Below, one piece after another: positions 1,028-62,888 of a DNA stretch of 64,000 bases; position 1 is the stretch's first letter, and the number at the start of each line of letters is the position of its first letter. Both the position numbers and the translations under genes were made by a program. The stretch is taken from NCBI GenBank assembly GCA_001824435.1, contig MHXH01000017.1:335-64334 (forward strand). Direction: 5' to 3'. The notes under the pieces were generated by a model. That model made no database searches. It worked only from the letters and a program-made list of their open reading frames with translations, and was not told where the DNA came from. The DNA is from Parcubacteria group bacterium RIFCSPLOWO2_01_FULL_48_18 (GTDB taxonomy: Bacteria > Patescibacteriota > Minisyncoccia > UBA6257 > WO2-01-48-18).

Positions 1028-1660
1028 TCATAAGGTTTCCAGCCGGATGCTTCCTGTGGTGCTTCCAAAATTGACATTCGTCGAGGTGGCAAATGAAGTA
1101 GTAGCCGTAGTAGCAACCACTTCTCCCTGCGAGCCGCCGGACCAGTCGGTCTGCGCGTAAATATCATTGATGTAACGGGAAACGTAGCTGACCTGGGAAA
1201 ATTCGTTGGCGCCGGCTCCGGGTTCAGTCCATGTCAGTTTCGTCGTAAGTTTCTTCGTGGACGGGTCCCACGCGCCTCCGGCGCTGACAATATTGCCGGT
1301 AGACGTTGAACGATACACGTCATCCGTCCAGAAATAACGCGTATAGGCGATGCGGTTAAGCGTAACGGATTCTGTTCCGGTCGCATGCACCCATTTACCC
1401 GCAGATGTAGTGGCAAAATACGCATTGGCGGAGCTGGTGGCAAGCTGATCAAGATTGTTCCAATTTTCAAGGCTCAAGGCCCGAACCGCCTCTACTGTTT
1501 CCTGCGACAAAAAGAGCGCGGCGGTTTTGCCAAGCGAGAGCCGGACGCCTTTAATCGATGTCGCGATGGCAAGCGAGATTGAAACGCTGACAAAAATAAT
1601 AATCGCCACCGCCACGATGACTTCCATCAAAATTTGACCCGGCTGTCCTTTGCGCAACAT
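1028..1660 (-). CDS. type IV pilin-like (prepilin-type N-terminal cleavage/methylation domain) protein
   Basis: Internal Met gives MLRKGQPG|QILMEVIVAVAIIIFVSVSISLA. Gly, then E at +5 and a hydrophobic helix is a class III signal. The Thr/Ser-rich C-terminus is typical of CPR pilins. The ORF-track N-terminal extension crosses promoter repeats and was not used. Confidence 0.6.
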   Translation of the reverse strand: MLRKGQPGQILMEVIVAVAIIIFVSVSISLAIATSIKGVRLSLGKTAALFLSQETVEAVRALSLENWNNLDQLATSSANAYFATTSAGKWVHATGTESVTLNRIAYTRYFWTDDVYRSTSTGNIVSAGGAWDPSTKKLTTKLTWTEPGAGANEFSQVSYVSRYINDIYAQTDWSGGSQGEVVATTATTSFATSTNVNFGSTTGSIRLETL

Positions 1661-1724
1661 TGGCTTGGCTATTGCATGTATTGTAGCATATACCTTGCTA
1701 GTTTTTGGGAAACTGTGAATAACC

Positions 1725-1775
1725 AGATTTCGACATATCGATATGTCGGTATGTCGAAATTTTCGATATAATAAA
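1725..1775. promoter_or_regulatory. Palindromic 8-bp-unit motif (cgacatatcgatatgtcg) between the divergent pilin and ROK genes
   Basis: Perfect 18-bp palindrome plus extra tcgaNat units. Same octamer family as 1003-1030, 2043-2102 and 8055-8168. Confidence 0.4.
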
Positions 1776-1778
1776 AGC

Positions 1779-2702
1779 ATGCTTTCCATCGGCATCGATA
1801 TCGGCGCGAGCAAAATATTAGGAATCGTCTATGACTCGCGCCGCAAAAAAATTGCCCGTCTTCACATCGCTCAAACAGAAGGACCGCGGTCGGCCGTTGC
1901 AATGGCCGAAAAGCTGATTCTGGAACACCGCATGACCGGCAAAGGAAACATACCGACAGGCATTGCAATTGCCGGGGTGGTAAAAAACAACACGGTGGTG
2001 CGCGCCGCGAACATGAAAGGATGGAACGGAATAAACTTGAAGGCCGCATTTCGACATTTCGATATTTCAGTATTTCGGCATATCGACATTTCACGGTTCC
2101 GGGTCGAAAATGATGCGCAGTGTTTCGGGTACGCAGAATCTCTAATTGGGTACGGAAAAAACAAGGAATCAGCCGTCTTTTTAACCCTGGGGAGCGGCAT
2201 TGGCGGAGCAATTCTTTTAAACGGCTCGTTCTACCGAGGGGCGCATGGGTCGGCAGGAGAGGTGGGGCATACCGTAGCGAAATTCGTCCCGAGCAAAGTC
2301 GAGGGACGAAATTCGAAATTCGAAACCCTCGAGTGGGAATATCTGGCCGCGAAACGGTTTTTTGCTGCACATGGGGTAGACGACCCGAAAGAACTGGAAG
2401 ACAAGGCGCGGAAGGGCAATAAGAAAGCTTTGAACATGTACCGGGAATTCGGCGTCAACCTCGGCGTCGGCCTTGCCAATATCATCAATACGCTCGATCC
2501 GGAAATCATCATTTTGGGCGGCGGCCTCGCGCACACGTACGACCTGTTCATTGCTCCGGCTCGGCAGACCATCAAAAGATTTGTCGTCAATCCTGCGGCG
2601 AGTCGCACCAAAATCGTCAAATCAAAAATCGCTTGGCAGGGGGCAGCGATTGGAGCAGCGCTAATGGCTATCAATCGAGTAGGAGGGAAACTCACTGCGT
2701 AA
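1779..2702 (+). CDS. ROK family sugar kinase (glucokinase-like)
   Basis: MLSIGIDIGASKILG..., ENDAQCFGYAE, GSGIGGAILLNG and GEVGH match the ROK/glucokinase signature. Start chosen at the conserved N-terminal Met. Confidence 0.75.
   Translation: MLSIGIDIGASKILGIVYDSRRKKIARLHIAQTEGPRSAVAMAEKLILEHRMTGKGNIPTGIAIAGVVKNNTVVRAANMKGWNGINLKAAFRHFDISVFRHIDISRFRVENDAQCFGYAESLIGYGKNKESAVFLTLGSGIGGAILLNGSFYRGAHGSAGEVGHTVAKFVPSKVEGRNSKFETLEWEYLAAKRFFAAHGVDDPKELEDKARKGNKKALNMYREFGVNLGVGLANIINTLDPEIIILGGGLAHTYDLFIAPARQTIKRFVVNPAASRTKIVKSKIAWQGAAIGAALMAINRVGGKLTA
2043..2102 (+). repeat. In-frame 8-bp tandem repeat (6 units, atttcgac-like) inside the ROK kinase CDS
   Basis: atttcgac|atttcgat|atttcagt|atttcggc|atatcgac|atttcacg encodes AAFRHFDISVFRHIDISRFR, inserted before the conserved VENDA motif. 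Confidence 0.6.
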
Positions 2703-19873: not shown

Positions 19874-20581
19874 ATGGGAACCGATCCCCGGCACATTGCT
19901 ATTATCCCTGACGGCAACCGGCGGTGGGCAAAAGCCCACGGCCTTGCAATTTGGGAAGGACACAAAAGAGGCTTTAAACAATTCAAGCCGCTATTAACAG
20001 CCGCATTCGATGAGGGCGTCTACTGCGTCTCGGCCTGGATGGCATCGATGGACAACCTCACCAAGCGTTCACATGAAGAGGTCAAGTTTCTCTACAAAGC
20101 CTTTGAGAGTATGTTCAACGAACTCTATGACGCGCCTGAAATCTATTCGTACGACGTGAGAATCCAGGCGTTCGGCGAATGGGAATCTTTTCAACCATCA
20201 TCGCTCGTTGCCTCAATTCGCCGCATCATCGAAAAAACCAAAGAGCACCGGCGGCACCTTTTAAATCTCTTCGACGGCTACGACGGCATATCAGAAATGA
20301 CGCGGGCGGTGCAAACAATTGCCGACTTAAAAACAGTGGCTCCGGATTTAAAGGTTACGCCGGAACTCATAAAAGCACATCTGTACACCAGGGATTTACC
20401 GCCGGTTGATCTCGTCATCCGCACAGGCGGAGAACCCCACTGGAGCGGCGGCTTTCTGATGTGGGACATCGCTAACGCGCACTTCCATTTTTCTGAAAAA
20501 ATGTGGCCGGATTTTGATGAGAAAGACCTTCTAGCCGCACTTGAAGATTATAGAAAAAGGGAGCGGCGCCTTGGAAAATGA
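19874..20581 (+). CDS. uppS: undecaprenyl diphosphate synthase (isoprenyl transferase)
   Basis: HIAIIPDGNRRWA, RTGGEPHWSGGFLMWD. Confidence 0.9.
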   Translation: MGTDPRHIAIIPDGNRRWAKAHGLAIWEGHKRGFKQFKPLLTAAFDEGVYCVSAWMASMDNLTKRSHEEVKFLYKAFESMFNELYDAPEIYSYDVRIQAFGEWESFQPSSLVASIRRIIEKTKEHRRHLLNLFDGYDGISEMTRAVQTIADLKTVAPDLKVTPELIKAHLYTRDLPPVDLVIRTGGEPHWSGGFLMWDIANAHFHFSEKMWPDFDEKDLLAALEDYRKRERRLGK

Positions 20582-21543
20582 AAACAAAAATAATCAAGCC
20601 CCCCCATCTTAGAAACGGGGATACGGTTGCGGTTGTCACCGTTTCGTATCCAATTCTAAACAAGAACCTCTTTGAGCGAGGGGTTAAAACGCTTGAGCGT
20701 CTTGGCCTCCGCGTTGTCTATTACAAAGAGATATTCAAAAGCTACGGCCAGCACATGGCGGGCATGCCGCGCGACCGTATCATACAATTCCATAAGGCGA
20801 TTGCAAATAAAAAGGTCAAGGCGGTATTCAATCTCGTCGGAGGATACGCCGCGAATCAAATTCTTGATGTGCTCGATTTTTCTCTTATACGACGCAATCC
20901 GAAGATCATCTACGGCTTTTCCGACGTGACAACGATCCTAAACCCGATTTTCGAAAAGACGGGATTGATTACGTTCCACGGACCAAACATCGAAGAATGG
21001 TTTTATCGCCTTGACCGCTATAGCCGAAACTCACTTGTTACAACGCTTTTCGAGCCACGGCCGACGTATGAAATTCCGCGCTCCACGCGATGGAAGGTTT
21101 TCAAACCCGGCAGGGCACGCGGACGACTTGCCGGAGGAAACCTTACTATTGTCCGAAATCTCGTCGGTACGGATTTCAATCTCCGCTGGAAAAATCGACT
21201 ATTCTTTTGGGAAGAGATTGGAGAGGACATCGAGGGCATTGATAACATCTTGACACACCTTAAGCTCGCCGGCGCGCTCGACGACATCGCGGGCATGATC
21301 ATCGGAAAAAATATTATCGCGCCGCCCGAAAGTTACCTCCTGAAAAAACGGCGAAGAGCGCTTACATTTTACGAGGTAGTAACCAACGTCCTGCGCGGCT
21401 ACACCTTTCCGGTCGTAAGCGATGTTGACTTCGGGCACTTACTGCCTCAAGCAACAATTCCTATCGGTGCAAGGGCAGAGCTAAACGCTTCCTCCGGCAG
21501 CGGGAGGATAAGAATAAAAATTCTCGAAAGCGTCGTAAGTTGA
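20578..21543 (+). CDS. ldcA: LD-carboxypeptidase (peptidase S66 family)
   Basis: GFSDVT, GGNLT, DFGH triad segments; 4-nt overlap with uppS. Confidence 0.8.
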   Translation: MKTKIIKPPHLRNGDTVAVVTVSYPILNKNLFERGVKTLERLGLRVVYYKEIFKSYGQHMAGMPRDRIIQFHKAIANKKVKAVFNLVGGYAANQILDVLDFSLIRRNPKIIYGFSDVTTILNPIFEKTGLITFHGPNIEEWFYRLDRYSRNSLVTTLFEPRPTYEIPRSTRWKVFKPGRARGRLAGGNLTIVRNLVGTDFNLRWKNRLFFWEEIGEDIEGIDNILTHLKLAGALDDIAGMIIGKNIIAPPESYLLKKRRRALTFYEVVTNVLRGYTFPVVSDVDFGHLLPQATIPIGARAELNASSGSGRIRIKILESVVS

Positions 21544-21555
21544 TACCTGAAAAAA

Positions 21556-21586
21556 GAAAAAATTCCCCCGCTGGGAATTTTTTCTC
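21556..21586 (+). terminator. Rho-independent terminator after ldcA
   Basis: aattccc-ccgct-gggaatt followed by ttttttc. Confidence 0.7.
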
Positions 21587-21818
21587 AAAAGCCCGAATTA
21601 GATTACCCGGGTAGAAACCCTAAGTGGACGGCCTCAGCGGATCCGACACGTCGGATCACTTTAAGCGATTCGGCCTGTCCTTAATAAACAACTTGATCCG
21701 GAATCTAAACGAGCTCTATTGATAGTATACCCGCTGTTGCAATGAAGAATCAATGAATAGTTGTGGAGAAAGATCTACACATTATTGATCAAAAACTCAA
21801 GGGGCCCCACAAAAACCC

Positions 21819-22409
21819 TTAAAACATGATATCTTCCTCGGCTCGCTTATAATTGTGAATTTCTTCGGGGCCAAACCAAAATTCCAGTTCGTGTTCCGCC
21901 TCTTCTAGGGTTTCTGAAGCATGAATGAGATTGTGTATCGCCCGGCGGCCCTTGTTTGCAAGCGCCGCAGAGTCAACCGAAAAATCCCCTCGAATGGTCC
22001 CCATTTCTGCAAATGCCGGAACAGTATTGCCGGACAACTTACGCACCATATCAACGGCGTGTATTCCTTCAACCACCATTTTAACGATCGGTCCGGATAT
22101 CATATAATCCAAAATCCAGCTGCGAACCGATTTGCCGATCTCCGCCGGATCATCGGTGCCCATTTCTGTTACGGGATCCCAGCCGTATTTCTGATAGGTT
22201 GCCAAGGATTTTTCGCCAAGCCGACGGATCCATCTCTCGTCTTTCGGATAGTGTTCGTCGATCTGCTCACGAGTAATCGTGATCATCTCAAGCGCAATAA
22301 TCTTAAGGCCGCGCCGCTCAATGCGGCTCATGATCTCGCCGACAAGGCCTCGCTTCACGCCGTCGGGTTTAACCAATACTACTGTTTTTTCTTCTTTTGG
22401 GTGCCTCAT
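21819..22409 (-). CDS. ndk: nucleoside diphosphate kinase (with a ~45-aa insertion)
   Basis: TVVLVKPDGVKRGLVGEI, NLIHASE. Confidence 0.75.
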   Translation of the reverse strand: MRHPKEEKTVVLVKPDGVKRGLVGEIMSRIERRGLKIIALEMITITREQIDEHYPKDERWIRRLGEKSLATYQKYGWDPVTEMGTDDPAEIGKSVRSWILDYMISGPIVKMVVEGIHAVDMVRKLSGNTVPAFAEMGTIRGDFSVDSAALANKGRRAIHNLIHASETLEEAEHELEFWFGPEEIHNYKRAEEDIMF

Positions 22410-22455
22410 GGTGTCTATACAAAATAGCCGATGCGAAAGGCGCAAAAAGCTATAT

Positions 22456-23898
22456 TTAATTTTTCTTTGATTGCTTTAAGCCCGGCTTCTTGCTCTGCTT
22501 CAGTTGAACCCCTAACTCATTCAGCTGTTTTTTGTCTACTGCTGCCGGTGCGGCCATCAACAAATCCCTGCCGTCGCCGGTCTTCGGGAATGCAATCACT
22601 TCTCTTATATTAGGTTCATTCTGAAGAATCATCAAGATTCGGTCAATGCCCGGCGCAATGCCGCCGTGCGGCGGGACGCCGTATGAAAACGCTTCGAGTA
22701 GATGGCCGAATTTTTCTTCGACGCCCCCTTGGGTATGTCCCATCACTTTAAAAACATCGGCAAGGAGGTCCGGTTCGTGCGTTCGAATGCTTCCTCCTCC
22801 GACTTCATAGCCATTGCATACAAAATCGTACTGATGCGCGAGGACATTTCTTGTATCGTCGCGAAGGCGCGCTCGTAACTCGTCTACGCTTTCTTCTCCA
22901 AGCTGCTGTGGCCGCGTAAAGGGATGATGCGTCGCATCCCACCGCCGCTCTTTTTCTTTCCACTCAAACATCGGAAAATCGACTACGAACGCGAACGCAA
23001 GCTCATCAGGATTATTCTTGTCGCGACGCAAATCCGGCTTGTCGGTGCCGTATTTCTCTATTACCTCCCGATACGACAGCCGCACGAAAGGCTTAAAGGT
23101 AAAATGTTTCTGGGGATATACTGTTTCCACCAACGAAGTGAACAGTTCTTCCACAAGTTGCAATATCTCTTCTTGGCTGACAAAGCTCATCTCTACGTCA
23201 AGCTGGGTAAATTCCGGCTGTCGATCTCCACGCGTGTCCTCATCGCGGAAACATCGCGCAATCTGAAAATACCTCTCAATGCCGGCAACCATGAGGAGCT
23301 GTTTATATTGCTGGGGCGATTGCGGAAGAGCGTAGAATGTTCCCGGATGCAGGCGCGCAGGAACCAGGTAATCGCGCGCGCCCTCCGGGGTAGACTTGCC
23401 CAAAATGGGAGTTTCAATTTCTATAAAACGGCGCTGCGACAAAAAATTCCGTATAAACTGGATTGCCCGATGCCGCATTATAAGGTTCTGCTTCATTCGC
23501 TCGCGCCGCAAATCTATATACCGATATTTCATGCGAAGATCTTCGCCAATTTCGGTTCCGTTTGTATCAACTGCGATCGGCGGCGTTTTCGCCTCTGCCA
23601 AAATTTGAAGTTCGTCCGCAGGAATTTCAAAATCGCCGCTCACGATATTCGGATTCTCCATTCCCTTCGGCCTGCGCTGGACAATTCCCGATATTCGTAT
23701 CACCCACTCGCCCCGCAGCCTGCTTGCGGACTCATAAACTTCTTTATTCTTGGGAAAAAACACGATCTGGGCCACGCCCGTCCTATCACGCAAATCAATA
23801 AAAATAAGCTTGCCGTGGTCACGGCGACTGCCAACCCAGCCGAACAGCTCCACTTTCTTCCCTTCGTTTTTAGAAATTTCGTCTATCCAGGTACGCAT
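22456..23898 (-). CDS. aspS: aspartate--tRNA ligase (compact form)
   Basis: FIDLRDRTG, class II motifs FRDED.R.DRQPEFTQLD and GGGSIR, GIAPGIDR. Start at MRTWIDE; the upstream part of the ORF-track ORF is repeat-derived. Confidence 0.9.
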   Translation of the reverse strand: MRTWIDEISKNEGKKVELFGWVGSRRDHGKLIFIDLRDRTGVAQIVFFPKNKEVYESASRLRGEWVIRISGIVQRRPKGMENPNIVSGDFEIPADELQILAEAKTPPIAVDTNGTEIGEDLRMKYRYIDLRRERMKQNLIMRHRAIQFIRNFLSQRRFIEIETPILGKSTPEGARDYLVPARLHPGTFYALPQSPQQYKQLLMVAGIERYFQIARCFRDEDTRGDRQPEFTQLDVEMSFVSQEEILQLVEELFTSLVETVYPQKHFTFKPFVRLSYREVIEKYGTDKPDLRRDKNNPDELAFAFVVDFPMFEWKEKERRWDATHHPFTRPQQLGEESVDELRARLRDDTRNVLAHQYDFVCNGYEVGGGSIRTHEPDLLADVFKVMGHTQGGVEEKFGHLLEAFSYGVPPHGGIAPGIDRILMILQNEPNIREVIAFPKTGDGRDLLMAAPAAVDKKQLNELGVQLKQSKKPGLKQSKKN

Positions 23899-23935
23899 AG
23901 AACTAGAATCTGGAATCTGGAAGTGATTATTTATG
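23895..23935. repeat. Heptamer array (AGAATCT/AATCTGG type) directly upstream of the aspS start
   Basis: gaactag|aatctgg|aatctgg|aag. Confidence 0.55.
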
Positions 23936-23999
23936 CTTATGATACCCAAAATTAAGGGTCTTGACAAATTCTGTGGGTCTGCTATAATTATGGTGTTAA

Positions 24000-24900
24000 T
24001 CAGCTCCTCGCAAACAAAACAGGGTTTTTGGCATGAATGTCTGGTAGGCTGGCCAAATGGAGAATCGATGCATTTTTATATAGTTATACACTAAGCATCG
24101 ACAATCCATTTCCCCTCACTTGGCCAGCCCATCAGGCATTCGTGCCTACAAGAAGGGGGCTATTATCCGATAGTGGTTCGCTTCGGCGAGCTTCAAAACC
24201 TTGTCCGAGTGCCCCCAATATTTCCCTGCGAAGCAGAGAATGCATTAGCTGATCCGGCGTTCCCCAGTTGACGCCAGCCGGTTTCAGATCCTCAAGGGCA
24301 TGAGGACTCTGCTTCTGCAGGGACCAGTACGTGGGCGGTAAGGCGCATCGGCGTAGCACAGATGTCCGAGACGCCAAAGACCAACGCGAGCCCGGCGACA
24401 GGACCAAATGGGAATCGCGTTGGTTCCGCCCAGTAGGTCATCGGATCCTCAAGGCATGGGGACCCGCAGAACCACAGCATGGGTGAGGGTCCAAGCCTGT
24501 AAAGTCCCTGCCCGCTGAACACCCGGGAAATTCCCGCGTCATCCAGCGCGCGTGTGGATTCCCTCACCCACCAGACCAGGGGCTCTTCGGCAACAATCCC
24601 GCCGGTGCGGCGGAAAACCAATGCAGCGGAATCGCTGCAGCTGTTGAGCCTCCATCGCAGCAACCACGTGGCAGCGCCGCCCGACCCTGTTCGCACACAG
24701 GGTGCGCAAGCGGATGGCTCAACGGCTAAGGACAATCTCCTTGCTGCCACGACGAAACAGGACCCGCGTGCTGTCAAGACTGAGCACACACACACGAGAA
24801 AGCTTGATCTCTCGGCTCGTACGTCGAGCACACGGGTCCTCCTCCAAGGGCGCGATGCCACACCAGCTCGCGCCCTTTTCACTTTTTAATGGGGCAATGC
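24000..24900 (+). ncRNA. GC-rich non-coding island; candidate structured RNA with weak rnpB-like motifs (identity unresolved)
   Basis: GC content is clearly above the flanks and only GC-biased Arg/Ala-rich spurious ORFs are present. Long-range complementary segments exist (cagtacgtgggcgg ... ccgcccagtagg). Plus-strand segments gtgggcggtaaggcgcatcggcg and cccggcgacaggaccaaatggg resemble RNase P RNA GGGUGCGGUAAGAGCGCACCGCG and CCCGGAGCAAGGCCAAAUAGG, in the right order. No convincing P4 was found and the region is about twice rnpB length. Confidence 0.3.
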
Positions 24901-24905
24901 AACTT

Positions 24906-25784
24906 TTATTTGATTCCTTCCTTCTTTGCAAAAATATTAATCGCGCCGGCAGAAACCTCCACCTTGATAGTCCCCTGCGTATCGGTTCTGAAAACCCTAG
25001 ATCCGACTGCCGCAAGGCGCGACAAAGTTTCTTTTGTCGGATGCCCGTAACGGTTTTTTCCGGATTCAATCACCGAAACTTTCGGCTGCACTAATTTCAA
25101 CAGCTGCATCGAAGACGAATACTTTGATCCGTGATGCGGAACTTTCAGCACCTGTGCGCGCAGACCTTTCCCGCGCAGGAGTTTTTCGACTTTCGATGTA
25201 ATATCGCCGGTGAATAATGCGGAAAGCGCGGGTGTTTTTAGGCCGATAACCAACGATCTATCGTTAGGGTTTTTGGCGACAAATTCCGCGGGTGGCCACC
25301 ACACGGTCATTCGAGAATCGCCGTTGGTGATCATATCTTTCGCATCCACAACTACCGTGGGGATGTTTTTTTCTTTTATCGTACGCATCAATTCGCCGTA
25401 CGCGCCGATCTTACTTGCGTCGCCATTATAGAGAAACACGCCAACCTGGTACCGATTCATCACCTCGACAAGGCCGTCAAGATGATCCGCCTGCGGATGC
25501 GTAAGCATCACCACATCAATATATCTGTCCGTCGGCTTCATGACTTCTGCCAGCCGTTCCAACACGCGGCTATTAGGCCCGCCGTCAACAAGTATCTGAA
25601 CTCCGCCTTCAAGATTGATAAATGAACTGTCGCCTTGCCCAATGTCAAGAAAATAGATTGCAAGCGCATCGTGCGCACTGCCGGAGATAACCGTATGCCA
25701 GACAAATATATCGAGCGCGATCAACAAAAAGAAAATAAGAATGAGTAAATTATTGTATTGCTTGCCTTCTTTGAATGAAAACAT
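24906..25784 (-). CDS. comEC: ComEC/Rec2 C-terminal metallo-beta-lactamase domain protein
   Basis: LTHPQADHLDGL (HxHxDH), VPHHGSK; own N-terminal TM helix. Confidence 0.8.
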   Translation of the reverse strand: MFSFKEGKQYNNLLILIFFLLIALDIFVWHTVISGSAHDALAIYFLDIGQGDSSFINLEGGVQILVDGGPNSRVLERLAEVMKPTDRYIDVVMLTHPQADHLDGLVEVMNRYQVGVFLYNGDASKIGAYGELMRTIKEKNIPTVVVDAKDMITNGDSRMTVWWPPAEFVAKNPNDRSLVIGLKTPALSALFTGDITSKVEKLLRGKGLRAQVLKVPHHGSKYSSSMQLLKLVQPKVSVIESGKNRYGHPTKETLSRLAAVGSRVFRTDTQGTIKVEVSAGAINIFAKKEGIK

Positions 25785-25835
25785 GGAACGGGCCTAGAAT
25801 CTAGAATCTAAATTCCAGATTCTAGATTTTGGCAT
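25785..25835. repeat. Inverted heptamer arrays (ctagaat x2 / attctag) between the two comEC parts; contains the stop codon of the upstream part
   Basis: cctagaatctagaatctaaattccagattctagatttt. TAG stop of 25822..27306 lies within ctagatt. Confidence 0.6.
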
Positions 25836-27306
25836 CCCGCGGATAGTATTTTTTTATAAAAACCGCTGCCAGGATATAATAGACGGCAACAAAAAACGGG
25901 CTGAGATGTTCTACGACAAGAGGCAGGCTCACTGTTCCGCTGGCATTGATTAACCATGTTTCATAGGCAAGCGGCAGATACGCGACCCAGCCGAATACGG
26001 TCGAGAGCGTGGTCGAAACATATCCGGCCAGGCCCGTAACAAACCCCAAAAACATGGTAAGCGGAATCAATTCAAGAATAAGAATGTTGGTAAAAAACGA
26101 GATGGGCGAAAAACTGCCGAAATTGCCAAAGACAACAGGGATTACCATCAGTTGCGCGCTCAATGTCGTAAGTCCATGTTCGCGCCACGAAAGAAGCGTC
26201 GGCGCATTCGGTATATGAAATCGCTCTTGTATCGCGGGCATAAGATACACAATGCCGAGGAGCGCCAAAAACGAAAGCTGAAAACCGGCGTCATACCGCA
26301 GTACCTGCGGATTTACGAGAACCATCGCAAATGCCGCGACCATAATCGCATTTCTGATGCTGTGGATCTTGCCAATATAACCCGCCAGAAGAAGGATGCT
26401 CCCCATGATTGCCGCGCGCACCACCGAGGCTTGCGCGCCGGTCATCACCACAAAGGCGATGATGACCGCAACCGAAATCCAGAATGACGGTTTTTTCCCC
26501 AGTCCTATAATAAGCAAAAAATTTGCGATCGACCAGGCAATAATTGAAATATTGTAGCCGGATAATGCGACTAAGTGCGTGGTTCCGGAAAGCTTCATGT
26601 TCTCCTTAAACTTGGCTGAAAATTCAGCCCGTTCACCAAGCAGCAAGCCGTTCATAAACGCCGCCTCGTGCACGGGAAGAGCGCGGCCGATTTTTTCCTC
26701 AAAACTGTTTTTTATCCGATACAGCGCCGCTTTGATCGGAGACTGCGTACTCCGCGCCAGAAGTTTTGCATCAGGATAATACACAATCCCGTAAATCCGG
26801 TCTTTCCCAAGATAATCGGCATAAGCTCTCGGCTCCGGTTTTTGGATGACTCCCTTCAGTTCAACCACATCTCCGTATGCATATGCCGGATACTTTACCG
26901 TGCGCATCAACACTCTTCCTCCGTAAGGCTTCTTGTGTAACTCCAGTATGGCTGTCTGCGTATCCGGGCCTTGCGTCGGATCGGCGATGACTATCGCGGT
27001 AACCGATAAGATACGACCCATGGGCGCCGAAAAGGAATTGCGAGAAACGGATGCGTATCCGGAGGCGTACGCCGCTCCTAATATCGAGGCACAAAGAAGA
27101 ATCGAGAAAAAAAGAAATTTCATGCGGGGCGACTCTCCAATCGATGAAAATGTCGCTGGCAAACCGATATATGGCAGAGAGAATAATACGACAGCGGCCA
27201 AAAGCGCCGCCAGTGCCGCAATCCAAAAATTACCGGCGTATGCAAATAACCCGACTCCTATCAAAAACGAAAGCATCGCATAAAACGCGGTGTCAGATAC
27301 GTGCAT
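25822..27306 (-). CDS. comEC: ComEC/Rec2 N-terminal and competence transmembrane domain protein
   Basis: Polytopic membrane protein with competence-domain-like TM block (GTTHLVALSGYNISII...). Confidence 0.75.
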   Translation of the reverse strand: MHVSDTAFYAMLSFLIGVGLFAYAGNFWIAALAALLAAVVLFSLPYIGLPATFSSIGESPRMKFLFFSILLCASILGAAYASGYASVSRNSFSAPMGRILSVTAIVIADPTQGPDTQTAILELHKKPYGGRVLMRTVKYPAYAYGDVVELKGVIQKPEPRAYADYLGKDRIYGIVYYPDAKLLARSTQSPIKAALYRIKNSFEEKIGRALPVHEAAFMNGLLLGERAEFSAKFKENMKLSGTTHLVALSGYNISIIAWSIANFLLIIGLGKKPSFWISVAVIIAFVVMTGAQASVVRAAIMGSILLLAGYIGKIHSIRNAIMVAAFAMVLVNPQVLRYDAGFQLSFLALLGIVYLMPAIQERFHIPNAPTLLSWREHGLTTLSAQLMVIPVVFGNFGSFSPISFFTNILILELIPLTMFLGFVTGLAGYVSTTLSTVFGWVAYLPLAYETWLINASGTVSLPLVVEHLSPFFVAVYYILAAVFIKKYYPRDAKI

Positions 27307-27454
27307 ATGCCGCTAGCATACTATAGGCACAGTATCGGTGCAACACCAATCACATACGGACGTCCATGCAAGCTTCCCAGCAATTGACCTTACGCACTTC
27401 CTTTAATATAGTAGCAGTAGTTCATGCACAAGAAACTAAGGGATCTGCCTCCAA

Positions 27455-28038
27455 ATGATTTACGACAAGGATAGGGCGGAGAATGTCGGCGGATACCTCG
27501 CGTGGGATAACTTCTACGATGTGCCGTTCATTCTCGAATATGCGCGCAGGGTCGGCTCTCCGGTGCTCGAGCTCGCCTGCGGCGCCGGACGCGCGTCATG
27601 CGAGCGCTCGCAGAGTACGGGATCGACGCATACGGCATCGAGGCATCGCGCCCGATGATTACCATCGGTCTTACGGCGCGGGCAAAACTCCCGCCGGAAA
27701 TTCGCCGGAACATACATTTCTGCATCGGCGACATGCGCTCGTTTTCATTCGAGATACAATTCCCGCTCATCATCATCCCGTTCCATAGTTTTTGGAGCAA
27801 CATGAACAGGGCCGAAGCAGAACAGTGCGTCCGCTGCATCCTGGATGTACTTACTCCTGCCGGAGTTTTTCTTGTCGATACGCCAACGTTGAATGATGAA
27901 TTTTTGCTTGGAAGCAAATATGACTGGTGGGTGGAAACCGCCGAGAAATTCAAGTTTTCATTCCGCATGGAACGATACACAAAGCCGGATGGTGCGCGTC
28001 TGGGAGAAATTCTGGTAAGTCAAAAGAATAGCCCTTGA
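27455..28038 (+). pseudogene. Class I SAM-dependent methyltransferase interrupted by a 1-nt frameshift near 27590
   Basis: ORF 27455..27658 carries motif I (VLELACGAGR). ORF 27598..28038 continues the fold (RALAEYGIDAYGIEASRPMI) in another frame. Overlap is at the gcgcgcg run. Confidence 0.55.
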
Positions 28039-28069
28039 TCGGGCTATTTTAAATTTAAATGGAAACCCT

Positions 28070-28200
28070 TCGACTCGCTTCGCTCACTCAGACCTTCGGC
28101 TCTGAGGCTCAGGCTCGAAGAGGTATTGTTTCGTAACCGCATTCATCCCTCGGGACTGAGGACCTCGGGACGAACGTCCTCGCCGCAGAGCGGCAAGGTA
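28070..28200. repeat. GC-rich dispersed repeat (R1-related)
   Basis: ggctctgaggctcaggctcgaagag ... ccctcgggactgagg. Confidence 0.55.
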
Positions 28201-28260
28201 TTCTGCGGACGAAACAATAAAAAAGCCGCCTCGGTTTTCGATGCGGCATGTATTATTATG

Positions 28261-28953
28261 TTACTTATAATCGTGGCTGATCTCTCCTTCGTGATGTTCC
28301 ATGATCCACTCAGGGAGTTCATCAACCGACCTTAAAATATTTTCAAGTTTCAACTCTTTTGGCGCCTGTTTCAGTAAAAATGGGCCGGTTTGAACCATTA
28401 CGGTCTCGATAGCCGCAGCTTGCCCCGCATTAAAATCAACGATGGTATCCCCAACGAATATGCAAGTGTTTCTTGTGACGCCAAACCGCTCTCCAAGAGC
28501 CTCAAGAATGAACCGAAATGCTCTCGGATCAGGCTTTCGATATTCCACATCCTGTTTTGCTGAAATAACTTCGAATTCGCGGTGAAGGTCAAGCCGCTCA
28601 AAAATATCGTTGATGTTCTGCCGATTCCTCGTCGTAAGGAGCGCGTTTACAAAGCCGTTCTTACGACACCAGAAAAGCGCTTCTTTCGCTCCGGGCACAA
28701 GCGGCATCGGGTCCCGAAGATCGAGCTTCTCCCAATCGGAATACAACTTCTTCGCAAGAATCTCGGTGATATCAAGCGCTCTTTGCAAAAGCTCTGCTCC
28801 GGGAATACCCCATAATTCCGTAAGCTTTCTGCGCGCCTCACGCGTATAGCGAACCTCGTTTACGGCACAAAGCCATTTAATACGACGGAGTCCCTCGCGG
28901 AACGAATCATTCACGGGGCCGTCGAAATCATAGATAATCGCTTTGATTATCAC
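28261..28953 (-). CDS. HAD superfamily hydrolase
   Basis: IIYDFDG (motif I), VGDTIVD (motif IV). Confidence 0.75.
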   Translation of the reverse strand: MIIKAIIYDFDGPVNDSFREGLRRIKWLCAVNEVRYTREARRKLTELWGIPGAELLQRALDITEILAKKLYSDWEKLDLRDPMPLVPGAKEALFWCRKNGFVNALLTTRNRQNINDIFERLDLHREFEVISAKQDVEYRKPDPRAFRFILEALGERFGVTRNTCIFVGDTIVDFNAGQAAAIETVMVQTGPFLLKQAPKELKLENILRSVDELPEWIMEHHEGEISHDYK

Positions 28954-29042
28954 TCGCGGCTCCCTATGGAATTAAAAGAGCGGTGGACAATCTACCGCCA
29001 TGATATGCAATGCGCTTCCGAATGTCAAGCCGCGCCGCTTTT

Positions 29043-29570
29043 TCAAAATTCAATTCCTAACTTTGCAATCTCGCCGCGGTTGAACGGATGTTTAATCTCA
29101 CACATTTCGGTGACAAGGTCAGCGCGGCGGACAAATGACTTCGGCGCATTCCGGCCGGTCAGAATCACCAGCTTTTCAAATGGCACATATTGAATCGCCA
29201 CGAGCACCTGTTTGGACGAAATCAGTTTCAAGCTCACTGCCACATTCACTTCATCCAAAACAATTACATCCCATCGTCCGCTCCGCAATTCTTTTCTAAA
29301 ATGCGCCAACGCCTTTTGCGCGGCCCTCTTGTGCGCCGAACGCGGCAACTTGTCGCCTAAAATTCCCACAAACCCCAAGCCCATCTTCTGAACCTGGAAC
29401 CTGGAACCTGGAATTTGGAATTTGGTGCCAAAATAGTCTTCGCCGGATTTCCACGGGCCTTTGATGAATTGAATCATAAGCGCCTGGCGGCCGCGGCCAA
29501 GCGCGCGAACCATCTGGCCCAACGCGGCCGTGGTTTTACCCTTTCCATTACCGGTAAAAATAATAACCAT
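29043..29570 (-). CDS. cob(I)yrinic acid a,c-diamide adenosyltransferase-like (CobO/BtuR family)
   Basis: FTGNGKGKTTAALG P-loop, IQFIKGPWKSGE, VVLDE. Confidence 0.6.
   Translation of the reverse strand: MVIIFTGNGKGKTTAALGQMVRALGRGRQALMIQFIKGPWKSGEDYFGTKFQIPGSRFQVQKMGLGFVGILGDKLPRSAHKRAAQKALAHFRKELRSGRWDVIVLDEVNVAVSLKLISSKQVLVAIQYVPFEKLVILTGRNAPKSFVRRADLVTEMCEIKHPFNRGEIAKLGIEF
29385..29440 (-). repeat. Heptamer tandem repeat (aaattcc x2, aggttcc x3) in-frame within the CobO-like CDS
   Basis: Encodes KFQIPGSRFQVQ. Same heptamer family as the 5'UTR arrays. Confidence 0.55.
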
Positions 29571-29633
29571 GATGGTATGATAACAAAAAAGCGATGCTCG
29601 CGCGCCGCCCTCACCCACAAGGAGGAATTGAAT

Positions 29634-30704
29634 CTACGCTGCATGCTTGATTTCGATCACATCGCCGTCGCGCACCGCATATTCTTTACCTTCGGTGCGA
29701 ATAAGTCCTCGCTCTCTCGCCTGGCTGAAACCACCGGCATCCATGAGGGTTTTCCAGTTGATTACCTCTGCTTTAATAAAATGCTTGGCAAAGTCTGAAT
29801 GTATTGTTCCGGCAGCGGCCACAGCAGTCGAGCCTTCACAGAGCGTCCACGCCCGTGTTTCATCCTCCCCGGTTGTGAGAAACGTAATCAGATGTAATAT
29901 GTCGTATGCTGTTTTAATGAGTCGATCCAATCTGGATTCTCTGGAAAGACCGAAAGCAACGCGCTCTTCGACTGTCAAACCAGCGGCTTCAAATTCCTCT
30001 TGTACGTCCATACTGATATACGGCCACCCTCGCGTTTGAAATTCGCGAGACGTGCTTTGGGGAATTTCTTTTTCGCGGCCGTTGAGAAGATAGATGCGCG
30101 GCTTCATAGTCAGCAATTGATACCCATTCAGAACGCGGCGCTCTTCCTCGACAAGTCCTTTCTCAAACAATACCTCTCCTTTCTCTAAAAGCTGCAATGC
30201 ATGAGAAAGGATATCGCGTTCCCTCACCGCTTCTTTCTTTCCCCCTTTGATATCCTTTCCTAACCCTTCAATCCGTTTACTGACGGTTTCCACGTCTTTC
30301 AATATCAGTTCCATGTCGAGAATTTCTTTGTCTCGCGAAGGGTCGATGCTCGATTGCGTATTGACGATATTCGGGTCTGAAAAGGCGCGCAACACGTATA
30401 CGATTGCATCCGCTTCCCGGATATTCGCGAGAAATTTATTTCCCAATCCTTCGCCCTGGCTTGCGCCCTTCACCAAACCGGCAATATCCAAAAATTCTAT
30501 GGTGGTACACACTTTCTTGGCCGAGTGCGTCAACTGCGCGAGCACATCCACCCGTTCATCGGGAACCGCAACCACGCCCACGTTCGGATCAATGGTGCAA
30601 AAAGGATAATTCGCCCGGTCAACTTGTTTTTTGGTAATTGCTTGAAACAGCGTCGACTTGCCCACATTGGGCAGACCGACAATGCCGATGGATAATTTGC
30701 TCAT
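29634..30704 (-). CDS. ychF: ribosome-binding ATPase YchF
   Basis: IGIVGLPNVGKSTLF, FCTIDPN, DIAGLVKGAS, C-terminal TGS domain. Confidence 0.9.
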   Translation of the reverse strand: MSKLSIGIVGLPNVGKSTLFQAITKKQVDRANYPFCTIDPNVGVVAVPDERVDVLAQLTHSAKKVCTTIEFLDIAGLVKGASQGEGLGNKFLANIREADAIVYVLRAFSDPNIVNTQSSIDPSRDKEILDMELILKDVETVSKRIEGLGKDIKGGKKEAVRERDILSHALQLLEKGEVLFEKGLVEEERRVLNGYQLLTMKPRIYLLNGREKEIPQSTSREFQTRGWPYISMDVQEEFEAAGLTVEERVAFGLSRESRLDRLIKTAYDILHLITFLTTGEDETRAWTLCEGSTAVAAAGTIHSDFAKHFIKAEVINWKTLMDAGGFSQARERGLIRTEGKEYAVRDGDVIEIKHAA

Positions 30705-37099: not shown

Positions 37100-37168
37100 C
37101 CGAATAATCTTCGTATGGATACACAGAGGATAGGCGGAGATGTGTAATACACAAACAGAAATTGAATA

Positions 37169-37200
37169 GAGCCCGGTGCCTATAGAAGCACACCGGGCTC
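37169..37200 (-). terminator. Hairpin terminator downstream of the island gene 37245..38498
   Basis: gagcccggtg-cctatagaag-caccgggctc, then a U-rich run on the minus strand. Confidence 0.5.
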
Positions 37201-37244
37201 ACTCGTTGGGAGAGGATCAACTGCCTCCTTCCCGAGAAAGACGT

Positions 37245-38498
37245 TTACTCCCCGTCCCTCTCACCTTCATCGGCGTCACCGGCAGCCTGACCGGCAGTCG
37301 ACGGCTGCTCTTCCTCGCGCTGGGAGCGCTTGGAAACGTCGTCTACCACCTTGTTCAGGAATGCCTGGGCGGCCTTCACCTTCAGATCCCGGCCGTCCTC
37401 CTCCACCTCATCGAGAAGAGCGAGCTTTTTGAAGCCGCCCTCCCCGCTGTGGGTGAACCGCCGGGGCTTTCTGTCCTTGCCGCAAAGGCCAAGGAAGAAA
37501 ACCGTTCCGTCGAGTGGATGACGTTCGGGCACGTACACCTTCAGCACGAACCCGCCGCCTTCAGAAGCCTCCTGCTCGAGGAAGACAGGGCCGGACACCG
37601 GCTGCCGACCCGGAACGTCCCACTCGGAAACGTAGCCCTCGGCAAGGCCAATGGCTCCGCTCCGGATGCCCTCGACCGTGACGCCCGCAGTCAGCTTCTT
37701 GCGAAGCTGCTCGATCGAACGGTAACGCTGATTGCGCGCTCGGGCCTTGAGTACCGTGAGCCCATTGAACTGCGCGTAAAACAGCGTAGCCAGCGCAGCC
37801 TTCTGCGGCTCGGCCTTGGCATCGAACCAACGCACGAGGAAGTAGTCGGTCCGGCCGCTCGCGGGGTTATACAACCCCCACGCGTACTTGCCGTCCCGGC
37901 CGTTCAGGCGCTTGTCGGCCTTGATGGCCTCGAGACGCCTGTCGTTGTGCTGTCTCGCCTCCTCCTTGCTGATCCGTTCGGCGAGATCAAGCTCGTCTGA
38001 GCCCCCGGCACCCAGATCGTAGATGCTCTGAGCGTCCCGGATCCCTGCCTCGAACGTAGCCTGGATATCGACCAGGAGCATGAAGGCAGGGGAAACCATC
38101 TTTTCCACGGCCTTCAACTGGCCAATGGCCTCATCGCGATCTCTCTCGGCCTCTGAGATTTCCTGCTGCAGCTTCCCGATTTCTACGGTGGTTTCCGCAG
38201 TTCTCAGGAGACGATTGAGCGTCTCGAGCTCTTGCACAGTCTGGTGGAGGTATTTCGTCCACCCAACCGTGCCCAGGAAAAGCTGGTACAGCTCATCGGC
38301 CGTCCCTGCGTTGTTCGGGTCGATGCCGAACGCAAGCGCGAGATTGCGCTTGTTTCCGGCAATCTCCTCGGTCTTCTCGCGAGCTGCAGAAGCCTGCTCC
38401 CGAACTTGCTCCGAGAGCTTGCGGATCGACTCCCTACGAGCCTTTCTGGCAGCTTCCAGCTGTTCGGGGCTCGCGTTTGAAGCAATCTGCGTACTCAT
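37245..38498 (-). CDS. hypothetical protein A (417 aa; N-terminal coiled coil, C-terminal globular domain), GC-rich island
   Basis: Start at MSTQIAS. GC content and codon usage differ from the flanks. No family recognised. Confidence 0.5.
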   Translation of the reverse strand: MSTQIASNASPEQLEAARKARRESIRKLSEQVREQASAAREKTEEIAGNKRNLALAFGIDPNNAGTADELYQLFLGTVGWTKYLHQTVQELETLNRLLRTAETTVEIGKLQQEISEAERDRDEAIGQLKAVEKMVSPAFMLLVDIQATFEAGIRDAQSIYDLGAGGSDELDLAERISKEEARQHNDRRLEAIKADKRLNGRDGKYAWGLYNPASGRTDYFLVRWFDAKAEPQKAALATLFYAQFNGLTVLKARARNQRYRSIEQLRKKLTAGVTVEGIRSGAIGLAEGYVSEWDVPGRQPVSGPVFLEQEASEGGGFVLKVYVPERHPLDGTVFFLGLCGKDRKPRRFTHSGEGGFKKLALLDEVEEDGRDLKVKAAQAFLNKVVDDVSKRSQREEEQPSTAGQAAGDADEGERDGE

Positions 38499-38785
38499 AC
38501 TCTTCCTCCTGGCTAAAGATGATGGATGTGAAACAGTGAACGCTCTCCCGACACAATTATGGATGGTTGGTACGAGAGAGTGTGCTGACTCGGAATCCGG
38601 AATATTCTTATCCTCGCTCAGACAAGAATATTCCTCCCATAATAAGGAAAGGAGGCAGTACACTCCCTCGTACACTTAATTCTCAATGAACACCTCTATT
38701 ATACACCCGAACCGCTAAAAAGTCAAGAGCCCCGCAGCCGAAGCCGGGGCTCTGAATATACTTAAAGATTGCCGTGAAAAAGAAC

Positions 38786-59112: not shown

Positions 59113-59811
59113 ATATATTTCTTTCTATAGCCACACAAAGTGCAGAAATTCGAACAACAAAGTATTTCCATATATTTCTATAATATTTCCACATATTTCT
59201 GAAATACATTGAAATATGCTTCGCGAAACAAATAGAAATATCCTGTTTTGTATTTGCGCTTCCGTTGCTCCGCAACGGTTGGCTGACGCATTCTCCGACT
59301 GAAACGTCAGGGCTGCCCTTCAATAAATTCAGGGCTAAGTTTCTACGGGATTATTTATTCCGATTCCCCTAATTCACGCTCTCGATCATCCAGTCGAAGC
59401 AATTCATCGTCTATTTCATCTTTCCTTTCCCGGATATCTCTTAACCTTTGGTTATCTCCATCTATGCCAAGGTTTAGTTCAAAATCTTTCATCCGTTGTA
59501 ATTCATTCTCCAGCTCCTCCTTTTTTTACGAATCTCCAACGACCTTTCAGCAATTGTTTGTTTCTCTATTTTTTTGATTTTTCCATGTTAGTAAAACAAA
59601 TAACCTCCCTCGGTATTATATCCTATCAAACCCAGGTTATAAGTTCAACCTCGGGGTTGCTCTGATGAGCAATAGGGCTTCACCGAAGTGTCAATTGTCA
59701 ATTATTACCTCCGATGGGTGTGGGGATTAATTTTTTTGGATTATTAGTACTCCTCGGCTGAAATCCTTACGGATCTTACACCTGGAGCCTATCAGCCAGC
59801 GCTCCGCACTG

Positions 59812-59945
59812 GAATTTCTAATTCCTAATTTCTAATGACTAATCAAATCCAGATTTCGAAATCCCAATAACCAAAATATTAGAAATTGGCCATTTGGGCA
59901 TTGAAACATTGATTAGGAATTAGGTCAATTAGAAATTAGACATTT
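59812..59945. repeat. AT-rich heptamer-array element (aatttct/attagaa units) inserted in the 3'-terminal variable helix of 23S
   Basis: Shares attaggtcaattagaaatt with the copy at 63303-63418. rRNA homology resumes on both sides. Confidence 0.6.
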
Positions 59946-60013
59946 CCGGTGCGAAGCACTGGTTTTTACGTGGTAGTCTTCCACGATCCTCAAACGATAC
60001 CTTATCTTAGGGG

Positions 60014-60047
<34 letters not shown>

Positions 60048-60482
60048 CGTCCGAACATAGCTACCCGGCGTTCCACCTGGTGGCAGAGCCGGCAGACCAG
60101 AGGTTCGTTCATCCCGGTCCTCTCGTCACATAATCACATATCACTATGTGTGCAGACTATATCTTTACCCGTCCAGTCTTCGCCGGTTGGCGAATGGCAG
60201 GTTTGGGTATCGGCGTATTATAGATGTTCAAAAACATCTATCTCCCGGGCACATAAACTTATGTGCTTCGGTCAGTCGTTACGGGGTCAACCCTTCGATA
60301 AACTCAGGGTAACTTCCCACGGTATTAACTCTAGTTCGTTTATCCAAAAGTTTTGGACCGCAAAACTTTTACAAACTAAAGCCTTCACCGTTATTAGCCG
60401 AATTGTCATCTCGCATTACTGCGAGAAGTAGCAATTTTCGTTTACTAGGGACGACTCCCTTCAAGTATCAACGCCTGCGGCA

Positions 60483-60793
<311 letters not shown>

Positions 60794-60872
60794 TTTCACG
60801 TACCCTTTTAAATGGCGAACAGCCATACGCTTCCCACCTTCTCCAGCGGGGCGCTAGGGTGAGCCGACATCG

Positions 60873-61713
60873 TACATTGTTCCGTTATTACTAACAGTGT
60901 GGACTATGTCTTCATCCAATTATTTTTACTTTCAAGTAATGGCGCTGACGTATTAGTCAAATCTTTAAAAATTTGACTCTTCCGAATAAATCGGAAAGTC
61001 TCTACGGGGTTATAACTCAATTTTGTACTTCATTGATGGAATAACTGCATCAGCCAAAAGTTCTCTAAGCCTGGATAAAGATGATTTTTTAAAACGTAAT
61101 CTAAAATAGTTTTTGTCTCTATTTAGGCTAGTTTCTAAATTCATCTTTCTTAAAACTGCGATCAACCTTTTCTGATCACTGACATCGAACTGCTGAGAGT
61201 TCAGATACACATCAGAAGATCTACATCTGCTCCCATCGTCCATATACCAAACCGCTAGACTGACCACATCTAAATTGAGTTCATCCGGAATGATTTTTTT
61301 ACCATTCCGATAAAACATTCTATAAAGTTTAGATAGGCCTTCAAGCTGCCTGGTGTAGAAACGATAGGCAATTCTGTTTCCATTTCCCTTTCTTATTTTA
61401 GGAGCTGAGGCTGAAACATCTTTCAATAACCGATATTTCCAATCAACATATTCTTTTTGATTGTAAGAATGATTGATTTCTAGCAATGCGTTCTTGCTCC
61501 TCGGTAATATACGCAAGTAACCATCTCCCAAAATTGTTCCAATGATCAATGATTTTTGGAATTGAGTTAAACTTCCCACGGCATTGTCCATACGATAATC
61601 GTATCATATGGAGTCCGCCGTTATAAGTCAGATTTTTATTCTTCGAGTACCGAACACATCGTTTCAGTACCGAAAGGTATGACATTGCTGTCATAGCACC
61701 CCGATTTAAGTTA
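60873..61713 (-). mobile_element. Group I intron in 23S near E. coli position ~2500 (peptidyl-transferase loop), carrying a LAGLIDADG homing endonuclease gene
   Basis: Exons ...ggctcggcacct | intron | cgatgtcggctc... match GGCACCU|CGAUGUCGGCUC. Exact splice points are uncertain by 1-3 nt. Confidence 0.65.
61010..61591 (-). CDS. LAGLIDADG homing endonuclease (intron-encoded)
   Basis: Two LAGLIDADG motifs: LIIGTILGDGYL and LAVWYMDDGS. Confidence 0.9.
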   Translation of the reverse strand: MDNAVGSLTQFQKSLIIGTILGDGYLRILPRSKNALLEINHSYNQKEYVDWKYRLLKDVSASAPKIRKGNGNRIAYRFYTRQLEGLSKLYRMFYRNGKKIIPDELNLDVVSLAVWYMDDGSRCRSSDVYLNSQQFDVSDQKRLIAVLRKMNLETSLNRDKNYFRLRFKKSSLSRLRELLADAVIPSMKYKIEL

Positions 61714-61940
61714 AGGTGCCGAGCCTGGCCGTCGATAGGAACTCTCGGGCCAGACTAGCCTGTTATCCCTAGAGTAACTTTTATCCGGTGTCTCCGGCCT
61801 TCCTATGAAGAGCCGTCGGGTCACTAAGTTCTGCTTTCGCACCAGCGCGACTTGTAGGTCTTGCTGTTAAGCCGGCTTTTGCCTTTACGCGTCCAGCTCG
61901 ATTTCCATCCGAGCTAAGCCGACCTTAATAAACTCCTCCG

Positions 61941-62573: not shown

Positions 62574-62888
62574 TTCATTAGGTTCGCCGCGCGTATCGCA
62601 CGGCCTGCATATCGCTATGCAGTTCGGACCATATCATACAGCTACCGAAATAGCCGTTCTGGCTTGTGGTCTCTGAGGTGTTCCGGGCACAGAACATGCG
62701 CCACGGTTCCCTGCTGATTGTCCGCCGCTCCGATTTTAATCGGAAACCGCTCCAAGATTTTCACCTTCTCGACTAGAAGGTACTTGAAGACACCACGGAT
62801 GTTCCAGCATATACACCAGATTTTCACCGCCGCTTGGCGGTGTCCCCCTGTAGTTCCACGGAGGTGGAACTACGTTTAAGGAAAACGC
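61954..62888 (-). mobile_element. Group I intron in 23S near E. coli position ~2260 (P-loop side of domain V) with 3'-located homing endonuclease ORF
   Basis: Exons ggggcgttttcct | intron | cctaaaaagtaacggaggag match GGGGCGGUCUCCU|CCUAAAGAGUAACGGAGGAG. 5' exon ends in U and the intron ends in G. About 315 nt of ribozyme-like sequence precedes the ORF. Confidence 0.7.

Follow-up and report, generated by a model that had tools for sequence, protein, structure and literature searches.

What is encoded in the gap between aspS, the gene for aspartyl-tRNA synthetase, and the metallo-β-lactamase (MBL)-fold half of comEC in Parcubacteria group bacterium RIFCSPLOWO2_01_FULL_48_18? This gap, about 1 kb without a credible gene, was analysed within a stretch of 64,000 nucleotides of contig MHXH01000017.1, referred to below as the window. 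A first-pass annotation, made by a model from the letters alone, had singled out positions 24000-24900 as a GC-rich island and proposed a large structured RNA with partial motifs of rnpB, the RNase P RNA gene. The observation was largely right, and the rnpB interpretation was wrong. We conclude, with a probability of roughly 55%, that the island is a real gene for a non-coding RNA (ncRNA) of a new family on the plus strand; it is a candidate for a lineage-specific and fast-evolving gene, whose RNA is predicted to fold into an array of hairpins. Its composition does set it apart from its surroundings, as had been noticed: every 200-nt segment of 24201-24900 has a G+C content of at least 0.58 (maximum 0.645), against a mean of 0.491 (standard deviation 0.056) for the 64 kb. 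The GC-rich portion begins near 24150, and the transcription unit described next spans 23961-24889.

A sigma-70 promoter is found at 23961-23988 (+), with the -35 element TTGACA at 23961-23966, a 16-nt spacer and an extended -10 element, TGcTATAAT, at 23980-23988. It matches the consensus at 12 of 12 positions and carries the TG, and it is the only such site within 20000-30000; the looser pattern TTGAC-N-TAnAAT occurs five times in the 64 kb, this site included. The string TATAAT..AATCAGC occurs once in the window (0.05 expected). From this promoter, transcription is inferred to start near 23995, and the predicted 5' end of the transcript (23995-24029, +) holds the 9-mer AAUCAGCUC at 23998-24006, followed by an A/U-rich single-stranded linker. 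At the other end lies a predicted intrinsic terminator (24846-24889, +), in which a 12-bp GC-rich stem-loop at 24846-24877 (inverted repeat I9, 100% complementary, also seen in the helix probabilities) is followed by UUUCACUUUUUA. The terminator was called from sequence and fold, and is not in the output of a simple terminator scan; the converging comEC-MBL gene has its stop codon 17 nt further on. The island looks like an autonomous plus-strand transcription unit, with an implied transcript of about 890 nt.

The folding of this transcript was then compared with that of shuffled sequence. The plus strand has a predicted folding energy of -392.7 kcal/mol, against -308.6 ± 9.3 kcal/mol for dinucleotide shuffles (z = -9.1), while GC-rich coding controls reach only z = -3.95 (a cassette from another contig, L238) and z = -3.25 (window positions 37210-38100). 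The island contains 10 inverted-repeat pairs, and this agrees with the long-range complementary segments that had been reported in it. When helices with a pair probability of at least 0.7 are taken as high-probability, the RNA is predicted to begin with an imperfect hairpin of 117 nt and about 37 bp (H1, 24030-24146, +; inverted repeats I1 and I2), whose base is GGCA../..CGUGCC and whose A/U-rich apex holds CGAUGCAU-UUUUAUAU. Independent domains of 25-110 nt follow, many of them built on near-perfect 10-16-bp stems. A accounts for 36% of the unpaired positions, similar to the 5S, 23S and rnpB controls.

Could the island instead be an unrecognised protein gene, either a minus-strand open reading frame (ORF) of 189-196 amino acids or a recoded gene? 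Automatic gene callers annotate a protein of 179-189 amino acids here in several assemblies, and the stop codons in frame +1 of the island are mostly TGA. The underlying ORF, at 196 amino acids the longest in the island, lies on the minus strand, antisense to the sole strong promoter. It belongs to no Pfam and no PHROG family, and a search among 5.8 billion proteins returned only the ORF itself; its amino-acid composition is what translation of GC-rich non-coding DNA typically gives. The G+C content of the island is flat across codon phases, with a period-3 signal of 3.8-5.7 times the median, whereas aspS, the MBL gene and two GC-rich genes, used as controls, give 17-76 times the median. No frame of the island opens under alternative stop-codon readings or genetic codes, and its six-frame translations have nothing in common with those of the counterpart island in a related contig (L091, described below) or of other loci. 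The first-pass statement that no credible ORF is present is borne out, a protein gene at this site is exceedingly improbable, and the 'hypothetical protein' placed here by automatic prediction is spurious. A small ORF inside H1 was also considered and was rejected after a by-hand frame comparison, in which its frame was not kept in L091.

The identity suggested at first, RNase P RNA, requires closer attention, as RNase P RNAs of bacteria of the Candidate Phyla Radiation (CPR) have been reported to be diverged, to have extended or missing helices and to score below Rfam thresholds, although they are still found with RF00010 at a lowered threshold (PMC8172020). Applied to the whole window at the gathering score, Rfam 15 finds only 5S and 23S rRNA and no rnpB anywhere else in the 64 kb, a result that would also be compatible with an RNase P RNA that has diverged extremely and carries giant helix extensions. 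Lowering the threshold to E ≤ 10 for the 1.1 kb of 23850-24950, both strands, brings up only weak matches of miRNA precursors to H1. No RNase P model, RF00010 included, is matched, nor are tmRNA, 6S, SRP, GOLLD, ROOL, OLE, HEARO, group I and II introns or the T-box; ARAGORN finds neither a tmRNA nor a tRNA in the island. The negative for RNase P is meaningful because the same search detects the rnpB of a Ca. Liptonbacteria contig (JACOXZ010000011.1, L042) at 93 bits (E = 4e-29).

The conserved landmarks of RNase P RNA are likewise absent. Regular expressions for CR-I (GAGGAAAGUC) and CR-V (ACAGAA..GCUUA), run over the window and all collected loci, find both only in L042, and no P4 pairing can be drawn in the island, in agreement with the first-pass remark that a clean P4 or CR-I was missing. 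The closest resemblances to them that the island offers, GUAAAGUCCC around 24498 and ACAGGACCCGCGUG around 24755, are non-complementary and stand in the wrong order. The two rnpB-like blocks do exist as strings, in that 24331-24349 and 24392-24413 resemble the S-domain blocks GGUAAGAGCGCACC and GCAAGGCCAAAUAGG. However, alignment of the island to E. coli M1 RNA is matched by 88 of 500 shuffles over the full length and by 29 of 500 over the S-domain, so the resemblance appears to be no better than chance; the supposed motifs are also missing from L091. The promoter and first bases of the island do resemble those of the L042 gene (tCTTGACAA..TGTATAATTATTGTGGTAATTCAG), which also lies near aspS and, as the island would be, is a strongly promoted gene of the stable-RNA type. 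Beyond this, nhmmer and blastn of the island against L042 rnpB find similarity in the promoter only, and the island is about 2.5 times longer than a class A RNase P RNA. We therefore reject the RNase P identity, given the missing covariance-model match, the absence of CR-I, CR-V and P4 and a motif resemblance that appears to be at chance level; even an extremely diverged form is very improbable, and the suggestion of rnpB joined to another RNA falls on the same evidence. What is supported, by the promoter, the terminator, the lack of a coding signal and the folding z-score, is the fallback offered in the first-pass annotation, an unclassified large structured RNA. It should also be noted that L042 3133-3484 (+) is a class A RNase P RNA gene in its own right, about 0.5 kb upstream of aspS; its 93 bits fall just below the Rfam gathering score of 100, in line with the published account of diverged CPR RNase P RNAs that RF00010 still finds at lowered thresholds (PMC8172020), and default annotation would therefore overlook it.

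Among the relatives, one proved informative. The proteins of the window are matched exactly on contig MHXF01000031.1 of GCA_001824395.1 and on JGI, ENA and Logan contigs. Ten contigs carry the exact MBL protein, and the six that span the island (from NCBI, JGI, ENA and Logan) are all 100% identical there; one further contig (L088) has six single-nucleotide differences at its end, probably assembly noise. Outside these copies, the nearest MBL protein is 55% identical and lies in L091 (Logan SRR22388042), where it is the reciprocal best match of the window's MBL protein. For AspS the highest identity is about 70%, and no clustering partner emerges for the window; judged by these protein sequences, the host lineage is isolated.

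L091 has the same gene order as the window (comEC, MBL, gap, aspS), and its gap also holds an island, with 58-63% G+C in a contig of 46% G+C and a length of about 490 nt, versus about 890 nt in the window. It has a 12/12+TG promoter in the same orientation; its transcript would start with UUAAAUCAGCUC, compared with UUAAUCAGCUC in the window, and the same 9-mer stands equally distant from the -10 element. In the place of H1 there is an 89-nt hairpin with the same base, GGCA../..CGUGCC, and the same apex, CGAUGYAU..UUUUUAUAU, on a stem of different sequence. Next in L091 comes an GAAnnGGGGnUAnUAU box, with GAAAUGGGGAUAGUAU as the counterpart of the window's purine-rich box, and L091 has an analogous UGGGG../..CCCCA domain with two hairpins among its helices of at least 0.7. 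When promoter and 5' end of the two are aligned locally, z is 6.0 and none of 300 shuffles does as well; alignment of the box, GGCAUYCGUGCC..GAAnGGGGnUAnUA, is marginal (z = 2.2, equalled by 11 of 300 shuffles). The L091 island folds with z = -9.6 and shows neither codon periodicity nor a credible Rfam match at E ≤ 10. Its promoter-defined strand, with 27 G-U pairs, reaches -242.6 kcal/mol and the complement -218.1 kcal/mol; this strand bias in the predicted folding is the best hint of selection at the level of RNA.

Several observations weigh against an RNA gene. The transcription unit and the structure are predictions, and the family consists of two members, all other copies being identical. 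Their bodies cannot be aligned with each other (z = -0.3), as would fit weak or no constraint on sequence, and in L091 a canonical U-tract terminator is missing. The RNA has more C (31%) than G (27%), a C-richness unusual among stable RNAs, its long near-perfect stems are unlike the architecture of ribozymes or riboswitches, and no loop motif recurs in it except in one duplicated hairpin. In the window, moreover, the island is nearly strand-symmetric, with G-U pairs making up only 16 of 282, and the absolute energy is slightly lower on the minus strand (-417 versus -393 kcal/mol).

These last points mean that the hairpins could be inverted repeats at the level of DNA. The explanation built on them is that of a minus-strand palindrome cluster working in the DNA or the mRNA, as a terminator, an insulator, a 3'-end stabiliser or an element akin to REP or BIME, with the plus-strand RNA being incidental. 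It accounts for the orientation of the flanking genes, all four of which are on the minus strand, for the pairs that are nearly all Watson-Crick, for a minus-strand fold of z = -6.2 and for the single terminator-like site on that strand, at 24639-24622. Because the minus strand also folds well and G-U pairs are so few, we assigned the strand by promoter and terminator and not by pairing. Both signals point away from a minus-strand element: the best promoter in 10 kb faces the opposite way and is kept in L091, and the sole clear U-tract terminator is on the plus strand. The plus strand also has the more extreme z-score, and in L091 it clearly folds better than its complement. Furthermore, blastn of the island against the remaining 63 kb of the window gives chance-level matches and no second copy of any hairpin, unlike REP-type repeats, and 0.9 kb far exceeds known insulating palindromes. 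A palindrome cluster is thus quite unlikely in our judgement, and the plus-strand RNA gene remains the reading that we favour.

The distribution of the island raises a different question, namely whether the transcript has a function at all. When the island was compared by nhmmer and blastn with 80 aspS-centred loci from GTDB species representatives, nothing was found. The MBL-aspS spacing is 25-130 nt, with the island absent, in two other Parcubacteria (L003 and L012), and the syntenic gaps of three others (L006, L018 and L034) hold other small genes and not the island RNA. The island is hence an insertion specific to a small clade. Following up four proteins (P0004, P0131, P0171 and P0130) yielded no third family member, 1.9 Mb of collected loci matched regular expressions for the 5' module in L091 only, and phage and plasmid collections gave no blastn match, with chance matches only in viral scans. 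Beside aspS in other Parcubacteria there are GC-rich non-coding islands at L017 1185-1580 (+), with a consensus promoter and a terminator, and at L010 about 1640-1900 (-). These match no Rfam family at E ≤ 0.01 and are unrelated in sequence to the island of the window; they may be additional unknown RNAs.

Metagenomes were also scanned with the pattern TTGACA-N16-18-TATAAT-N6-11-AATCAGCTC. The scan yielded 31 stretches, of which about 18 were unique and most were chance matches (eukaryote-like tandem repeats and Firmicute leaders); the window itself was not among them, although an identical contig exists in JGI metagenome 3300025317. Only three CPR-like contigs (L214, L234 and L238) look related, and in the promoter only; beyond the pattern, L234 has TTGACAAATTCTG..TGCTATAAT in common with the window, and L238 and L214 have TTGACAAAT. 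In L214, the module precedes a leader hairpin and an ORF of 201 amino acids. Between a hydrolase gene and scpA, L234 (374-1080 of the reverse complement) and L238 (3440-4150) have orthologous slots, with a common promoter and 5' start (AATCAGCTCTTC) and a common terminator (GCCCGTGCGCGYAAGCGCCCGGGC). Their payloads are unrelated, have 61-64% G+C and are small protein genes without a known family. The same promoter type is therefore found ahead of a true rnpB (L042), of coding cassettes and of the island RNA.

This brings in the rival that we take most seriously among those considered, in which the island is a transcribed but functionless insertion between comEC-MBL and aspS, similar to a phage moron, with a payload of foreign or decayed DNA. 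It is serious because the payload behind a common promoter can differ wholly between relatives, as the slots of L234 and L238 show, where promoter, 5' start and terminator frame unrelated GC-rich coding sequences. Morons typically differ from their neighbours in base composition. The island does so as well, it interrupts an otherwise tight gene run, its payload is not conserved between the window and L091, and the window has a second GC-rich inserted unit at 37172-38760. Morons are defined as independent transcriptional units that spread through horizontal transfer (PMC3594210). The island resembles them in having a sigma-70 promoter and a factor-independent terminator of its own, in its insertion between genes that are neighbours elsewhere and in its deviating base composition. 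Unlike them, it carries a non-coding payload, it is flanked by aspS, ndk and comEC and by no phage genes, and its promoter looks native to Parcubacteria. The folding also speaks against a functionless payload, as the island folds 84 kcal/mol better than its shuffles while intact GC-rich genes gain 29-35 kcal/mol. In addition, both carriers keep the 12/12+TG promoter together with the 5' hairpin module, none of the frames tested shows signs of a protein ancestor, and phage and plasmid collections offer no source. We consider such an insertion rather unlikely on balance, and prefer a functional RNA gene.

If the island is such a gene, its consensus promoter would drive a transcript that ends at its own hairpin and U-tract. 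The 5' module would consist of single-stranded AAUCAGCUC, the A/U-rich linker, the long hairpin of about 40 bp and a purine-rich GGGG box, and the GC-rich body would be composed of eight to ten long domains, each an independent stem-loop or Y shape. This body would evolve fast, and what it has in common with L091 would be the hairpin-array style and not sequence or length. The product would act as RNA and be made abundantly, with the conserved 5' module as a functional handle recognised by a protein or a pairing partner. The hairpin array may provide nuclease resistance and a double-stranded surface, such that the RNA could serve as a scaffold or a decoy without requiring a precise tertiary fold; we hold this part of the proposal with far less confidence than the existence of the gene. 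As a by-product, the geometry of the locus suggests that strong head-on transcription may insulate aspS from comEC read-through.

Known systems offer partial parallels. Like OLE, GOLLD and ROOL, the island would be a non-coding gene that stands alone, exceeds 0.5 kb, is much more structured than the sequence around it and has a narrow distribution. Those RNAs, in contrast, carry numerous conserved nucleotides, form intricate junctions and have homologues in the hundreds, whereas the island has long near-perfect hairpins, conservation only in its first ~170 nt, two members and no Rfam match. With REP and BIME elements it shares GC-rich near-perfect inverted repeats between codirectional genes; it differs from them in being unrepeated in the rest of the 64 kb, in its length of 0.9 kb and in the consensus promoter that it carries on the opposite strand. 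A sponge of the CsrB/RsmZ type would have a repeated loop motif, which is absent here, only the AGGGCA and AGGCA loops of the duplicated hairpin being alike.

Bacterial ncRNAs of more than 500 nt are rare and, to our knowledge, every new class of large bacterial ncRNA so far has pointed to unexpected biology. CPR bacteria (Patescibacteria) are symbionts with tiny genomes, for which 0.9 kb of non-coding DNA behind a strong promoter is a considerable investment; if real and functional, the RNA would be among the few large ncRNAs known from this radiation. A broader generalisation is possible, though we regard it as doubtful: the island and its L091 counterpart would belong to a new class of Parcubacterial hairpin-array RNAs, 0.5-0.9 kb in length, with a stable-RNA-type promoter, a conserved 5' recognition module and a hypervariable GC-rich body. 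This class may itself be one face of wider CPR 'expression slots' between housekeeping genes, in which a conserved promoter, and sometimes a terminator, is kept while GC-rich coding or non-coding payloads are swapped between close relatives. A variable GC-rich payload behind a conserved promoter hints at an unstudied route of acquiring and expressing new sequence. Even if the island is merely a transcribed insertion, the locus is still shown not to be an RNase P gene, and the called 'hypothetical protein' to be spurious.

The predicted domains downstream of H1, all on the plus strand, are as follows. The region 24147-24218 comprises the purine-rich box GAAGGGGGCUAUUAU at 24152-24166 and then a small domain with a UUCG hairpin in the centroid fold; the closing pair of this domain, GGGGGC (24155-24160) with GCCCCC (24211-24216), was drawn by eye and is absent from the helices of at least 0.7. 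D2 (24223-24323) is a 16-bp closing stem around two hairpins, one of which, at 24289-24306, has the loop AGGGCA. D3 (24329-24434), a three-way junction among the helices of at least 0.7, holds both of the strings once taken as rnpB-like. Further GC-rich stem-loops occupy 24442-24750, with hairpins at 24442-24466, 24599-24613 and 24623-24638 and domains at 24480-24570 and 24639-24750 (inverted repeats I6 and I8). D6 (24759-24840) has a 13-bp closing stem, AGGACCCGCGUGCU / AGCACACGGGUCCU, around inner hairpins (inverted repeat I4, 93% complementary). Within the RNA there is also a 24-nt direct repeat, UC(A/G)GAUCCUCAAGG(G)CAUG(A/G)GGAC, at 24284-24307 and 24441-24463; it gives rise to two similar hairpins with AGG(G)CA loops and is the sole recurring motif inside the RNA.

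On the upstream side, aspS (22456-23898, -), identified by the Pfam families on the called gene, is divergent from the RNA gene, and the promoter scan places a weaker promoter-like site for it at 23967-23939. Downstream, comEC (24906-27306, -) is split into a membrane part at 25822-27306 and the MBL-fold part at 24906-25784 (Pfam Competence, DUF4131 and Lactamase_B), and is convergent with the RNA gene, whose 3' end it faces. The minus-strand run reads comEC-MBL-aspS-ndk.

The island had further been described as the only long stretch without a credible ORF and as much more GC-rich than its surroundings. It is not the only GC-rich island, as 37150-38500 is equally GC-rich and is a real protein gene. 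The latter region belongs to a second GC-rich island (37172-38760, -), which has 60-66.5% G+C and adjoins G6PD. It contains, at 37245-38498 (-), a gene for 417 amino acids that shows strong codon periodicity and an AGGAGG Shine-Dalgarno sequence and whose protein belongs to no Pfam or PHROG family. The unit also has a promoter of its own (TTGACT-17-TGTATAAT, 38726), a terminator at 37172-37205 and a structured leader of about 230 nt, and it looks like an autonomous insertion.

Lastly, the 23S rRNA gene at 59700-64000 (-) is interrupted by two LAGLIDADG_2 homing-endonuclease ORFs, at 61010-61591 and 61941-62573, an rRNA insertion of a kind typical of CPR bacteria. Rfam aligns just 62697-64000 of this gene, and the 3' end of the 23S rRNA appears near 59710.

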